NCBI GenBank assembly: GCA_018715565.1
Contig: DVLJ01000236.1
Location: forward strand, 48-64,047
Direction of reading: 5' to 3'
DNA length: 64,000 nt
Source of the DNA: Candidatus Ventrimonas merdavium
GTDB lineage: Bacteria > Bacillota > Clostridia > Lachnospirales > Lachnospiraceae
Shown here: piece by piece, positions 22,645 through 26,705 of the stretch
Position numbering within the stretch: position 1 is the first letter of the stretch
Layout of the letters: every line of letters begins with the position of its first letter
The notes under the pieces: generated by a model
What the model was told of the DNA's origin: nothing
The model's database searches: none
The model's input: only the letters and a program-made list of their open reading frames with translations
Translations under genes and position numbers: made by a program

Positions 22645-23996
22645 TGCTGTCTTTCTCCTGTTCTATCTTGATTTTCTGCCGCCTTCCACCGCTTCACGGC
22701 TTCCAGCTTCTCCTTCACCGCCGCTTCCGCCCCCTGGACGCCGGGATGGTAATACACCCGGTCCTTGACGCCATCCGGCAGGCACTGCATCCGCGCCACC
22801 TTTTCCTCGGTGTCGTGGGCGTAGATGTAATCCTCGCCGTAATGCAGCTCCTTCATCAGGGAGGTAGGCGCGTTGCGGATCTGGAGCGGCACCGGCTCCG
22901 CCAGCATGCGCTGGGCGTCCTCCTTTGCCGTCTCATAGGCCACATAGGCCGAATTCGTCTTGGGCGCCATGGAAAGGTAGATCACCGCATGGCTTAAATG
23001 CACGTTGCACTCCGGCATCCCCAGGAAATGGCACGCCTGATATGCGGCGATGGTCAACGGCAGGGCCTGGCTGTCCGCCATGCCCACGTCCTCGCTGGCA
23101 AACCGCACCAGACGTCTCGCCACATATAGAGGGTCTTCTCCCGCCTCCAGCATCCGGGCCAGCCAGTACACTGCCGCGTCCGGGTCACTGTTGCGCATGG
23201 ATTTGTGGAGGGCGGAGATCAGGTTGTAATGCTCCTCCCCCTTCTTATCATACATCAAACTCCGCCTGCCGATACACTGGGAAAGGATCTCCCAGGTGAC
23301 CGCGGTCTCCTCCGGGCCGATCTCCCCGTTGGTCACCGCCATCTCCAGGGTGTTCAAGGCGGTGCGGGCGTCCCCGTTGGCAAACTCGGCGATCTTCTCC
23401 AGCATCCCCGGCTCCACCCGGATCGGCAGATAGCCGAACCCCTCCGGGCTTTTTAACGCCCGCTCCAAAAGGCCGGTCAGGTCCTCCACCGTCAACGCCT
23501 GGAGCACAAAGACCTTGCACCGGGAGAGCAATGCGGCGTTGATCTCAAACGACGGGTTCTCCGTAGTGGCCCCGATCAGGATGATGCTCCCCTTCTCCAC
23601 GTAGGGCAGGAACGCATCCTGCTGGGCTTTGTTGAAGCGGTGGATCTCGTCTACGAACACCACCGTCCGCTGCCCCGAGCGGCGGGCCGCCTCCGACCGG
23701 GCCATGACCTCCTTGATCTCCTTGATGCCGCTGGTCACCGCGCTGAAATTGATGAATTCCGCGTGGGTCCGGTGGGCGATGATCATGGCCAGGGTGGTCT
23801 TGCCCACCCCCGGCGGCCCCCAGAAGATCATGGACGGCACCTGATCCTGGTCGATCAGCTGGCGCAGGATCTTCCCTTCTCCCAGAAGGTGCTTCTGTCC
23901 CGCAAAATCCTCCAGCGTCTCCGGCCGGAGCCGGCTGGCCAGGGGGCGGTACGCCTCCCGGCCGCTGTCAAACAGAGACATCTGCTCCATCTGCAT
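22641..23996 (-). CDS. rarA: Replication-associated recombination protein A (AAA+ ATPase)
   Basis: RPETLEDFAGQKHLLG, Walker A GPPGVGKTT, Walker B VVFVDEIHRFNK, and the MgsA C-terminal block HYNLISALHKSMRNSDPDAAVYWLARML. Confidence 0.9.
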   Translation of the reverse strand: MQMEQMSLFDSGREAYRPLASRLRPETLEDFAGQKHLLGEGKILRQLIDQDQVPSMIFWGPPGVGKTTLAMIIAHRTHAEFINFSAVTSGIKEIKEVMARSEAARRSGQRTVVFVDEIHRFNKAQQDAFLPYVEKGSIILIGATTENPSFEINAALLSRCKVFVLQALTVEDLTGLLERALKSPEGFGYLPIRVEPGMLEKIAEFANGDARTALNTLEMAVTNGEIGPEETAVTWEILSQCIGRRSLMYDKKGEEHYNLISALHKSMRNSDPDAAVYWLARMLEAGEDPLYVARRLVRFASEDVGMADSQALPLTIAAYQACHFLGMPECNVHLSHAVIYLSMAPKTNSAYVAYETAKEDAQRMLAEPVPLQIRNAPTSLMKELHYGEDYIYAHDTEEKVARMQCLPDGVKDRVYYHPGVQGAEAAVKEKLEAVKRWKAAENQDRTGERQQ

Positions 23997-24011
23997 ATCT
24001 CAAATCCCTCC

Positions 24012-26594
24012 TTAGCAGGTGGCTCCGCCCTTCAAATGCTTCTGGGCCTGCAGATTCTCCTGCTTTCTCGCCAGCAGATCGTCTGCCAGGAGCTGGCGCT
24101 CCACCTCCTCGAATCCGATCCGAGCCACCGTGTCCGCGAACCGCTCTCCGGTATTGCCCTGCTCCCTAAACAGCAGGATGGCCTTTTCCACCACAGACAG
24201 GACCTCTTCCTTATCCGTAAAGATCTTGTCCAAGTAACGGCCCTGGGCCACCTTCTTGCCCCAGCGTCCGCCGATGTATACCCGGTAGCCGTCAAGGAAG
24301 TCCTCCGTTACATGGAACGGACATTTTCCAACACAGCGGCCGCAGTGGTTGCAGGCGTCCGGATCCACCGCCAGCTTACCGTTCTCCATCTTGGCCACAT
24401 GGATCGGACAGGTCTCCTCCACCTGGCATACCTTGCAGCCCCGGCATTTCTCCATATCAAATTGGGGAACCCGCTGGCCAATGATGCCCAGATCGTTCAG
24501 ATCCGGCTTCACGCAGTTATTAGGACAGCCGCCCACCGCGATCTTAAACTTGTGGGGCAGCTTCACCTCCCGGTAGCCGTGGTAGAACCGCTCGTGGATC
24601 TCCTCCGACAGGGCAAAGGTATCCGCCAGGCCGTACTGGCAGGTAGTCCCCTTGCAGGACACCACCGGGCGCACCTTGGAGCCGGTGCCGCCGGTCTCTA
24701 AGCCATGGTCCAGCAGGTACTCCCGCAGCGGCTCGATATTGTCAAAGGGCACGCCCTGGATCTCCATGGTCAGACGGGTGGTCATGGTCACCTCGCCGCT
24801 CCCGAACTGCTCCGCCGCCTCGGCGATCACCCGGGCTTCCTCCGCGGTGATCTTGCCGTTCCGGGTGATGACCCGGCCGTTGAACTTGTCCGGGGTCCGT
24901 TTATCCTTCAGGAATCCCAGGGCCTTGACCCGGGTCTCCTCCTCCTTGGAGACGCCTGCGTCGGCGCCCTTGACCTTCACCTCGTTAAAGAAGGTCGACC
25001 CTTCCAACACCACGGTGTGCTCATAGCCGTAGAAGCGCATCCGGTTCTGGAGGAAGTATGCCCGCTTGCCCCGGGCGCAGACCAGAAGGTACTTCCCGTC
25101 CTTCGGCAGGCCGGGGATCTCCCCGTTCACCGCCGTCAGATCCACATACACCGCGCCCCGGATCGAGGGAGCTGGGCCTGCATCGATCACCGTATAGCCG
25201 TCCGCCTTTCCCGCGGCGTATTCCGCCGGGGTCATGCTCACCAGCTGGCCGTCCAGCTTGTTCATCATCACATAGACTGCCTGAACAAAGGGATGGATCG
25301 CCGTGGAAAACGGCGGCGCATAGGCAAAGTCTCCATTCTCAAAGTCTTCCAGGACCGCGCCCATATTGATGCCCATAACAGCGATATCCACCATCTTATC
25401 CACCGCTCCCGGTCCCAGGACCTGGACGCCTAACAGCTTTCTGGTGGTCTTATCCGCGATCAGCTTGGTGATGAAGAAGGAGGCGTCAGGATAATAATGG
25501 GCCTTGTCGTCGGTGGGAACCAGCACGGTCTCCACCTCAAAGCCCGCCTCTCTGGCCTGGGCTTCCGTCAGTCCGGTACGGCCCACATTTAAGCCAGGCA
25601 GCTTCACCACGCCGGTCCCCAGAACGCCAGGGTAGGTCTTCTGGGCGCCTGCCAGCACCTGGGCCAGGGTACGGCCCTCCAGGTTAGCCGAGGAACCCAT
25701 AGGAGACCACTGGCGGCTGCCGGTGATCCGGTTGGTCACCATCACACAGTCTCCCGCCGCATACACGTCCTCCAGGTTCGTCTTCATCTGTCCGTCCACC
25801 AGGATCGTGCCCTTCACCATCTCAAGGCCGGAATCCTGCAAAAATCCGGTATTGGGGCGGATCCCAGCCGCCATGATCAGCAGCTCGCAGGGCAGGGTCC
25901 CCGCCGTGGTGCGCACGCCGGTCACCTGGCCTTCCCCTAAGACCGCCTCCGCTCCCGTGCCGGTGATCATCCGCACGCCCTGGGCAGTCAGATGCTTTTT
26001 CACGTAGGCGGCCATCTCCGGATCCAGGATATTCGGCAGGATCTGAGGGGCAAAATCCACCACCGTAGTCTGGACGCCTTTGGCCTTTAGATTCTCCGCT
26101 GCTTCCAAGCCGATGAAGCCGCCGCCGATCACCACGGCCCGCTTCACGCCTCTGGTCTCTATGTACGTGCGGATCCGGTCTGCGTCGTCCGGGGTCCGCA
26201 TCTTAAATACGCCTTCCAGCTCCCGTCCCGGGATGGGCAGCTCCGCCGCGGATGCCCCCACGGCGATCACTAATTTATCATAAGGACAGATCTCCGTCTC
26301 CCCAGTGATCGCGTCCCTCACCTTCACTTCCTTCTTCGCCGCGTCCAGGGCCACCGCTTCTTTCCCTGTGCGCACGGTCACGCCGGTCAGGCCGGAATAC
26401 TTGGCCGGGGTGTTGACGATCAGCTCGTCCCTCCCCTGGATCATCCCGCCCACATAATAGGGCAGGCCGCAGCCCGCGTAGGAAATGTCCCGGTCCCGGG
26501 TCAGCACCGTCACCTCCATGCTCCGGTCCTCCCGCTTTAACTTCGCCGCGGTCTTCGTGCCGGCGGCCACGCCGCCAATGATCAATACCTTCAT
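24012..26594 (-). CDS. Three-module fusion: CoADR/NADH-oxidase-like flavoprotein, rhodanese domain, and Dsr-like sulfite-reductase module with a 2x[4Fe-4S] ferredoxin insert
   Basis: aa 1-445: GGVAAGTK, redox Cys in SYAGCGLPYY and a second Rossmann VVIGGGFIGLE. aa 452-535: rhodanese-like domain with LVCARGKRA. aa 560-860: NIR_SIR-like region with SCKGTTC and GGCPNNC. Ferredoxin Cys motifs CRGCKVCQVEETCP and CNHCGRCVGKCP. Confidence 0.8.
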   Translation of the reverse strand: MKVLIIGGVAAGTKTAAKLKREDRSMEVTVLTRDRDISYAGCGLPYYVGGMIQGRDELIVNTPAKYSGLTGVTVRTGKEAVALDAAKKEVKVRDAITGETEICPYDKLVIAVGASAAELPIPGRELEGVFKMRTPDDADRIRTYIETRGVKRAVVIGGGFIGLEAAENLKAKGVQTTVVDFAPQILPNILDPEMAAYVKKHLTAQGVRMITGTGAEAVLGEGQVTGVRTTAGTLPCELLIMAAGIRPNTGFLQDSGLEMVKGTILVDGQMKTNLEDVYAAGDCVMVTNRITGSRQWSPMGSSANLEGRTLAQVLAGAQKTYPGVLGTGVVKLPGLNVGRTGLTEAQAREAGFEVETVLVPTDDKAHYYPDASFFITKLIADKTTRKLLGVQVLGPGAVDKMVDIAVMGINMGAVLEDFENGDFAYAPPFSTAIHPFVQAVYVMMNKLDGQLVSMTPAEYAAGKADGYTVIDAGPAPSIRGAVYVDLTAVNGEIPGLPKDGKYLLVCARGKRAYFLQNRMRFYGYEHTVVLEGSTFFNEVKVKGADAGVSKEEETRVKALGFLKDKRTPDKFNGRVITRNGKITAEEARVIAEAAEQFGSGEVTMTTRLTMEIQGVPFDNIEPLREYLLDHGLETGGTGSKVRPVVSCKGTTCQYGLADTFALSEEIHERFYHGYREVKLPHKFKIAVGGCPNNCVKPDLNDLGIIGQRVPQFDMEKCRGCKVCQVEETCPIHVAKMENGKLAVDPDACNHCGRCVGKCPFHVTEDFLDGYRVYIGGRWGKKVAQGRYLDKIFTDKEEVLSVVEKAILLFREQGNTGERFADTVARIGFEEVERQLLADDLLARKQENLQAQKHLKGGATC

Positions 26595-26677: not shown

Positions 26678-26705
26678 AGTATACTATATCTGGGGAAGAT
26701 ATCAA
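26678..26705 (-). promoter_or_regulatory. Candidate sigmaA promoter of the oxidoreductase-rarA-hicB unit
   Basis: On the minus strand: TTGATA, 16-nt spacer, TATACT. Overlaps the stop codon of the upstream ytvI-like gene. Confidence 0.4.

Follow-up and report, generated by a model that had tools for sequence, protein, structure and literature searches.

Predicted Fusion of a CoADR-Rhodanese Flavoprotein with an Fsr-type Siroheme Module in Gut Clostridia

Results

Overall Organization of the Fusion Gene

The window analyzed here is a stretch of 64,000 nucleotides from the genome of Candidatus Ventrimonas merdavium (Lachnospiraceae; GenBank assembly GCA_018715565.1, contig DVLJ01000236.1, positions 48 to 64,047), and its minus strand carries an open reading frame (ORF) of 860 codons (24012..26594, stop codon 24012-24014) whose 860-residue product joins a predicted flavoprotein of the coenzyme A (CoA)-disulfide reductase (CoADR) type, a rhodanese domain, and a siroheme sulfite-reductase-like (SiR-like) module. 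The frame has no internal stop, and relatives 62-98% identical align with it across residues 1-860. A first-pass annotation of the window had described a single uninterrupted ORF with these three modules, leaving the strand unstated; both the frame and the modules stand, and no stop codon is hidden between the modules. The six cysteines it listed (Cys-42, Cys-506, Cys-647, Cys-652, Cys-690, and Cys-694) lie at the positions given, and its description is incomplete in passing over a C-terminal cysteine tail, the split-gene forms found in relatives, and the resemblance of the overall plan to that of NirB.

The ATG start codon at 26594 is preceded by a GAGG-type ribosome-binding site, and the resulting N terminus agrees with the MKVL(I/V)IGGVAAG start common to all relatives. 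The nearest database copy (P0002, 98% identical, 882 amino acids) has been called from a start 22 codons further upstream; the alignment of the relatives places the true start at ATG 26594 rather than at that upstream codon. Conservation is described below for an alignment of 37 full-length relatives that are 42-84% identical, and the structural model is an AlphaFold2 (AF2) prediction built from 37 relatives with a mean predicted local distance difference test (pLDDT) score of 85.1 and a predicted template modeling score of 0.67.

The N-terminal CoADR-Rhodanese Part

Residues 1-446 (25257..26594, minus strand) have the arrangement of a CoA-disulfide/persulfide-reductase-type flavoprotein, with Rossmann folds predicted for flavin adenine dinucleotide (FAD) and nicotinamide adenine dinucleotide (NAD(H)) and a dimerization domain. 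The Pfam families Pyr_redox_2 (residues 1-287, E 1e-60), Pyr_redox, and Pyr_redox_dim (residues 335-433) are matched, and the CoA-disulfide reductase model TIGR03385 and the model NF007123 score 385.6 and 361 bits, below their cut-offs of 578.8 (NCBI) and 458. Full-length matches to solved CoADR-rhodanese enzymes cover residues 1-536; the enzymes include the persulfide reductase of A. fulgidus (PDB code 6pfz, E 9e-98), 8a56, and 3icr, with 3nta matched as well, and the identity to the solved enzymes over residues 1-545 is 31-36%. The AF2 model superposes on 3ict, 8a56, 6pfz, and 3nta over approximately 540-560 columns with the rhodanese domain included, giving target template modeling scores of 0.88-0.93 in Foldseek.

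The redox cysteine Cys-42 (codon 26469..26471, minus strand) is invariant (37/37) and is equivalent to C42 of E. faecalis CoAPR, and its surroundings (SYAGC42GLPYY) fit the single-redox-cysteine pattern S-[FY]-A-x-C-x-L-P-Y. An acidic residue, aspartate or glutamate, occupies position 180 in 37/37 sequences, where the second strand of the NAD fold ends; by the usual Rossmann-fold rule this points to NADH as the probable electron donor of the N-terminal module.

The rhodanese domain (residues 447-540; 24975..25256, minus strand) is recognized by Pfam only below threshold (residues 469-533, 17.8 bits against 22.2). It is nevertheless regarded as real because the full-length sequence matches to 6pfz, 8a56, and 3icr continue to about residue 536 and the fold superposes on the solved enzymes. 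Its catalytic Cys-506 (codon 25077..25079, minus strand), equivalent to C508 of CoAPR, lies in the strongly cationic and nearly invariant loop C-A-[KR]-G-K-R, and Cys-506, Gly-509, and Arg-511 are each invariant in the 37 relatives. E. faecalis CoAPR needs both C42 and C508; the latter is found persulfidated in cells, and the swinging pantothenate arm of bound CoA has been proposed to carry sulfur from C508 to C42 beside the flavin (PMC9405070). Judged from its sequence, the N-terminal part belongs, as a divergent member, to the CoADR-rhodanese persulfide reductases, in keeping with the first-pass annotation, which had recognized a CoADR/Nox-type flavoprotein with two Rossmann folds and a rhodanese-like domain and had compared the two, in a comparison borne out in sequence and fold, to these enzymes.

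The Siroheme Sulfite-reductase-like Module

A variable linker (residues 541-552; 24939..24974, minus strand), composed of poorly conserved columns and forming the apparent site of fusion and fission, leads into an SiR-like module of the Dsr-LP/Fsr-C type (residues 553-835; 24090..24938, minus strand). Domain parsing with Pfam places NIR_SIR_ferr at residues 565-628 and NIR_SIR at residues 638-835 (E 1e-31), and Fer4 family matches inside NIR_SIR define an inserted domain (residues 711-762; 24309..24464, minus strand) that aligns with the ferredoxin insert of Fsr and is predicted to hold two [4Fe-4S] clusters. Among solved structures, the F420-dependent sulfite reductases (Fsr) 7npa and 7np8 match best (phmmer, E 6e-39 over query residues 580-828), followed by DsrA, DsrB, and NirA at approximately 1e-14. 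The C-terminal part is thus identified by its sequence as an Fsr-C/Dsr-LP-type module.

Residue equivalences were read from alignments to the Fsr chains using the Fsr numbering of bioRxiv 10.1101/2022.04.07.487323, in which Arg355, Arg423, Lys460, and Lys462, together with Arg388, are given as substrate-binding residues. Arg-607 corresponds to Arg388, Arg-642 to Arg423, Lys-682 to Lys460, and Lys-684 to Lys462; Arg-574 is the likely equivalent of Arg355, although two of the three alignments stop just short of it. These five residues and the four cysteines of the siroheme-cluster motif, C647-x4-C652 and C690-x3-C694, are invariant in the 37 relatives. The first-pass annotation had proposed a NIR_SIR-type module comparable with methanogen Fsr and left the presence of siroheme/[4Fe-4S] ligands to alignment; the module and the comparison are confirmed, and since the ligands and the substrate-binding residues are both present and invariant, the proposal cannot be dismissed for want of ligands. 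Its remark on the spacing of the first cysteine pair is correct in that Cx4C is one residue shorter than the spacing in Fsr and AsrC, but this is no anomaly, as 37/37 relatives share it (C-K-G-T-T-C), and the invariance marks it as a hallmark of the family rather than an error.

No replacement of any of the eight ferredoxin cysteines is seen among the 37 relatives; the X at Cys-720 in one row stems from masked bases. Two CxxCxxCxxxCP motifs had been annotated in the insert; the second has this form, and the first is C717-x2-C720-x2-C723-x5-C729-P, with five residues rather than three before the last cysteine.

The C-terminal Cysteine Tail

The polypeptide extends 25 residues past the end of the Fsr chains in a tail (residues 836-860; 24015..24089, minus strand) that is helical in its first part (residues 839-849 in the AF2 model) and terminates in GGATC, which makes Cys-860 the final residue. 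GGA[T/S]C closes the chain in 37/37 full-length relatives, down to 42% identity. The AF2 pLDDT falls below 50 at residues 858-860, and in the model these last residues are compatible with a flexible arm. The Fsr chains stop 1-14 residues beyond the aligned core, and the one AsrC compared is also without such a tail.

A census covering 120 close homologues of the C-terminal module and other representatives found the cysteine tail in 38 of 38 SiR-like modules joined to CoADR-rhodanese and in 4 of 4 joined to a C_GCAxxG_C_C domain, a putative thiol-redox family. The tail is absent from the modules fused to PF02579 (0/3) and DUF134 (0/1) domains, and is present in 48 of the 80 stand-alone modules that have no N-terminal extension. 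Among the copies examined, all those linked to CoADR and at least 56% identical carry it. The pattern is suggestive of a cysteine tail that tracks thiol-redox partners.

Distribution and Gene Arrangements

A pattern scan over one genome per species, from which the best 80 loci were kept, shows the full 860-residue architecture in 80/80 of these loci at 62-84% identity, and hence in at least 80 species genomes. The carriers include Mediterraneibacter, Blautia, Faecalicatena, Sellimonas, Eisenbergiella, and Hungatella in the Lachnospiraceae and Clostridium leptum DSM 753, Gemmiger, Pseudoflavonifractor, and Acutalibacter in the Oscillospiraceae. About a dozen of 301 sampled genomes of the same order have the full-length or an in-frame-split form. 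A protein search matched thousands of metagenomic clusters, of which the few that are named bear only the labels "FAD-dependent oxidoreductase" or "pyridine nucleotide-disulfide oxidoreductase." The first-pass annotation had asked whether the architecture might be a common family with an assigned function, and it is common but carries no assigned function in these sources. The architecture was not described in any paper returned by a full-text literature search with varied terms. Homologues of Dsr-LP in Firmicutes were pointed out by Susanti and Mukhopadhyay, in a text from which the words "fused" and "oxidoreductase" are absent (PMC3448663).

The pairing of the two modules recurs in at least four gene arrangements at 32-60% identity. 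In one locus the modules are encoded by adjacent genes, a 545-amino acid CoADR-rhodanese protein followed after 119 nucleotides by a 317-amino acid SiR-like protein with the cysteine tail, and a divergent LysR gene adjoins them; a second, more distant split pair was also found. Two further genomes have otherwise continuous frames interrupted by a single in-frame stop aligned to linker positions 542-543, a TGA in G050 (L096, G050:C3) and a TAA in G283 (L097, G283:C65), and these split genes could be recent fissions or possibly be read through. Selenocysteine at a catalytic cysteine position was considered for them and rejected, as the TGA and the TAA both lie in the linker and not at a cysteine. 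The order is reversed in L098:1998-6588, where a 311-amino acid SiR-like protein without the cysteine tail is followed after 5 nucleotides by a 568-amino acid CoADR-rhodanese protein (32% identical), then by a cupin gene on the other strand and by coaBC; the proximity of this CoA biosynthesis gene fits a CoA cofactor. The CoADR-rhodanese protein of this locus has a cysteine-bearing C-terminal extension of its own (…IHACGIGIK).

A tree of the SiR-like core was built with AsrC as the sole outgroup, the placement relative to Fsr and Dsr being taken from pairwise and profile scores. AsrC is distant in this tree, and the fused, split, stand-alone, and otherwise-fused forms are intermingled, indicating that the link with CoADR has repeatedly arisen and been lost. 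Some SiR-like proteins 70-80% identical to the module stand alone, with no CoADR neighbor. Other fusions of the SiR-like module, in which it is 65-79% identical, include those with C_GCAxxG_C_C domains (P0341, P0131, P0333, and P0391), a family annotated by NCBI as "(seleno)protein," and those with NifX/NifB-like PF02579 domains (P0319, P0348, and P0351). By its sequence distribution the module is highly mobile between architectures.

Clustering of all ORFs of the 80 loci identified only three recurrent neighbors, a DUF134 gene, a LysR gene, and a siroheme operon, and no transporter or sulfur-metabolism gene recurs beside the fusion in these loci. Immediately upstream of the fusion, and on its strand, 14-16 loci (for example, L050:823-1212) have the DUF134 (PF02001) helix-turn-helix gene; the LysR gene lies beside 9 loci, and hemA-sirC-hemC-cobA/hemD directly follows the fusion in approximately 10 Eisenbergiella-like loci. 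DUF134 may represent a dedicated regulator of the SiR-like module. The two are even fused in the protein P0390, where a single chain combines a DUF134 domain with the SiR-like module.

Host Genome and Genomic Setting

The source assembly, which is 97% complete, encodes at least two steps of siroheme synthesis (SirC-like and CobA/HemD). A reductase for 3'-phosphoadenosine 5'-phosphosulfate or adenosine 5'-phosphosulfate was looked for in this 97% complete genome and not found, which argues that the fusion does not complete a sulfate-assimilation pathway here, and sulfite or thiosulfate would then have to come from outside the cell or from organosulfonates. AsrA, a DsrC homologue, and a YeeE-type transporter were likewise looked for in the source genome and not found. 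AsrC occurs in 48 of the 301 genomes sampled from the order, and 2 of the 12 fusion-bearing genomes have it; mutual exclusion of the fusion and AsrABC was considered and rejected, as these counts give no signal of anticorrelation. The source genome also encodes a second NIR_SIR protein of 526 amino acids (G000 contig C37, L002:553-2133, minus strand; NIR_SIR_ferr at residues 42-107 and NIR_SIR at residues 118-261), whose gene adjoins a histidine kinase gene and is not in a cys operon.

Upstream of the fusion gene, a promoter-like site, TTGATA-16-TATACT (26678..26705, minus strand), matches the consensus at 10 of 12 positions in a scan and is a pattern match only. Downstream, rarA follows after 15 nucleotides and an ATGA overlap joins the unit to a hicB-like gene. 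The first-pass annotation had placed the fusion at the head of a unit with rarA and hicB; the gap and the overlap agree with this, but the neighborhood is found beside 0 of 80 related loci and is peculiar to this window, and neither a functional weight for it nor an operon logic linking rarA and hicB to the fusion was retained. Approximately 4 kb downstream of the fusion, beyond the rarA, hicB-like, TetR, and MATE genes, lies a gene for a 450-amino acid protein with a serine-dehydratase-α domain (PF03313; 18811-20163, minus strand). It had been annotated as a cyuA-like cysteine desulfidase, and the domain is present, making this another possible sulfide-forming gene, but its placement is not kept in the relatives. 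Two ORFs opposite the fusion gene (23640-24701 and 24705-25433, plus strand, 353 and 242 amino acids) were rejected as genes and are regarded as composition artifacts; in several G+C-rich relatives (for example, L038) such antisense frames are even longer than the true gene.

Comparison with Known Enzymes

The fusion combines features of several enzyme families and does not belong to Fsr, AsrC, DsrAB, or NirB by the features that define them. The closest correspondence for the C-terminal part is with group I Fsr of the Methanococcales (PDB codes 7NP8 and 7NPA), with which it shares an alignment over Fsr residues 362-604, the ferredoxin insert, the substrate-binding arginine and lysine residues, including the "assimilatory" arginine (Arg-607, Fsr Arg388), and the N-terminal fusion of an input module to a compact, single-repeat sulfite reductase. 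The input modules differ, as Fsr has an F420H2-oxidizing FrhB/FpoF-like dehydrogenase with extra iron-sulfur clusters in place of CoADR-rhodanese, and further differences are the Cx4C pair (Cx5C in Fsr), the added 25-residue cysteine tail, and the hosts, which are gut Clostridia here and methanogens for Fsr. The N-terminal part has the fold and the catalytic cysteine pair of CoAPR (8A56), B. anthracis CoADR-RHD (3ICR/3ICT), and the Npsr enzymes of Shewanella (3NTA) and A. fulgidus (6PFZ). In contrast with these enzymes, a whole siroheme reductase follows the rhodanese domain, and instead of a cst-type operon or CstR regulator alongside, DUF134 or LysR genes accompany the relatives.

AsrC (TIGR02912) resembles the C-terminal part as a siroheme subunit with a ferredoxin insert in anaerobic Firmicutes, and the AsrABC complex is believed to be coupled to NADH by a distinct flavoprotein, AsrB. 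The identity to true AsrC of the same order is, however, 28%, TIGR02912 gives 109 bits against a cut-off of 324, and AsrC forms a separate clade on the tree, has Cx5C, and lacks the cysteine tail. NirB offers the same order of parts on one chain, a flavoprotein of the pyridine-nucleotide-disulfide-oxidoreductase fold followed by NIR_SIR_ferr and NIR_SIR, and its model TIGR02374 matches both halves of the fusion (242 bits for the whole protein against a cut-off of 578, and 83 bits for the C-terminal part alone). NirB differs in having a BFD-type [2Fe-2S] domain, for which no Fer2_BFD match is found in the fusion by Pfam, and a flavoprotein without the CoADR redox cysteine or a rhodanese domain, whereas the siroheme module of the fusion is of the Dsr/Fsr type with a ferredoxin insert. 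With DsrAB the fusion shares a Dsr-type module with a ferredoxin insert, and the putatively flexible C-terminal arm ending in cysteine recalls, in a tentative comparison of our own, the arm of DsrC. Scores stay far short of the cut-offs for both dsrA (88 bits, cut-off 393) and dsrB (92 bits, cut-off 341), with 84-92 bits overall, the fusion is a single chain rather than an A/B heterodimer, and its tail has one cysteine rather than the two of DsrC.

Discussion

The analysis establishes the two modules with their invariant catalytic residues, the evolutionary linkage between them, and the siroheme genes of the host and of related loci. The fusion probably provides a route from sulfite or thiosulfate to hydrogen sulfide. 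The reading favored here, which is tentative and put at somewhat under an even chance, is of a soluble, sulfide-forming reductase with two sites that are coupled by thiol-borne sulfur, with Cys-860 as the probable carrier. At the C-terminal site, siroheme coupled to a [4Fe-4S] cluster would reduce sulfite with electrons arriving through the two [4Fe-4S] clusters of the ferredoxin insert. The N-terminal site would act as an NADH-dependent CoA-persulfide reductase, in which sulfane sulfur would be taken up as a persulfide on Cys-506, transferred to bound CoA and then to Cys-42 beside the FAD, and released there as H2S at the expense of NADH. Coupling of the sites would be by sulfur carried on thiols and not by electrons alone, and the Cys-860 tail would be the likely carrier that takes it from the siroheme pocket over to the thiol module. 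The substrate may be sulfite, thiosulfate, or both, drawn from outside the cell or from organosulfonates.

Several observations weigh against a thiol-coupled reductase of this kind. The traits Arg388 and CxnC...Cx3C in Fsr have been taken to indicate complete six-electron reduction without a thiol acceptor (bioRxiv 10.1101/2022.04.07.487323), and the siroheme pocket of the fusion shares these "assimilatory" traits (Arg-607 and CxnC...Cx3C). The tail counts overstate the evidence, as the sequences are related and not independent. In genome G069, whose reversed pair is the most distant of the split pairs, the SiR-like protein lacks the cysteine tail, as do the P0140-like proteins, which resemble the partner of P0128, so that the tail is not required for every pairing; conversely, many stand-alone SiR-like proteins, such as P0385, have the tail but no adjoining CoADR gene. 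A complex prediction of residues 1-545 against residues 546-860 with 37-row alignments returned a score of 0.00, which is no answer and weighs neither way.

The same modules may be read as a chain for electron input alone, after the manner of NirB and Fsr, in which NAD(P)H would reduce the FAD and electrons would pass through the two ferredoxin clusters to the siroheme, giving a self-contained NADH:sulfite reductase in which Cys-42, Cys-506, and Cys-860 would be regulatory or vestigial. This is considered rather unlikely despite its strong precedent in NirB and in the joining of Fsr-N with Fsr-C, the matching of TIGR02374 to both protein halves, and an Fsr-like pocket that suggests complete reduction with no need of a thiol acceptor. 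The invariance of Cys-42, Cys-506, and the whole rhodanese domain in 37 sequences down to 42% identity would be unexpected if they were dispensable, every one of the closest solved relatives catalyzes two-electron reactions of thiols or persulfides, and Pfam identifies no extra iron-sulfur or BFD domain that would bridge the FAD and the ferredoxin insert. In addition, the other fusion partner found with a cysteine tail, C_GCAxxG_C_C, is a putative thiol-redox domain.

A one-chain thiosulfate reductase would give the thiol module a different role, with Cys-506 taking the sulfane sulfur and freeing sulfite, the persulfide being reduced by the NADH/FAD/Cys-42/CoA center, and the siroheme consuming the sulfite and so pulling an unfavorable cleavage forward, all without need of the tail. 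The three activities needed are exactly those of the three modules present, the cationic loop C-A-[KR]-G-K-R suits an anionic substrate, and gut thiosulfate arises from host oxidation of sulfide. A precedent exists in Halanaerobium, where a rhodanese with an anaerobic sulfite reductase has been proposed as a route from thiosulfate to sulfide, both gene sets being described as common together in Clostridia (PMC5497025). Such an enzyme is nonetheless unlikely, as no thiosulfate or sulfate transporter is conserved beside the gene in the 80 loci, no YeeE-type transporter was found in the source genome, the characterized CoADR-rhodanese enzymes use persulfides and polysulfide with no report of thiosulfate found, and the invariant Cys-860 would be left unexplained. 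Very unlikely is an arrangement of two independent enzymes on one chain, one detoxifying reactive sulfur and the other a ferredoxin-fed detoxifier of sulfite, with the fusion serving only to ensure their co-production under sulfur stress. The stand-alone SiR-like proteins indicate that the module can work alone, and the intermingling of forms on the SiR-like tree shows frequent gain and loss of the link; the recurrence of the pairing across the gene arrangements and the consistent tail of the CoADR-linked copies (at least 56% identity) argue against such independence.

A further and doubtful proposal is that the Cys-860 arm is a built-in DsrC, reaching into the siroheme pocket, taking up partly reduced sulfur derived from sulfite as a persulfide or trisulfide, and handing it to the rhodanese, CoA, and Cys-42 for release as H2S by NADH. 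If this is true, the six electrons of sulfite reduction would be shared between ferredoxin, through the iron-sulfur path, and NADH, through the thiol path, and fermenting gut bacteria would have, in one soluble chain, an equivalent of DsrAB-DsrC-DsrMK.

Each type of module was already known, and the interest of the protein rests on its abundance in gut bacteria and on the unusual pairing of chemistries, a combination of which the literature search found no description. With the fusion, the possible coupling of a siroheme reductase to a thiol-based persulfide reductase could be studied in a system that is both compact and soluble. Gut hydrogen sulfide acts on the epithelium, on inflammation, and on the risk of colorectal cancer, and surveys of microbial sulfide formation count dsrAB, asrABC, and cysteine-degrading genes. 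The fusion scores far below the dsrA, dsrB, and asrC cut-offs and is annotated only as an "FAD-dependent oxidoreductase." If it reduces sulfite or thiosulfate, it would be a source of sulfide overlooked by these markers in carriers that include many abundant Lachnospiraceae and Oscillospiraceae of the gut, and these fermenting bacteria would also gain an outlet for reducing equivalents.

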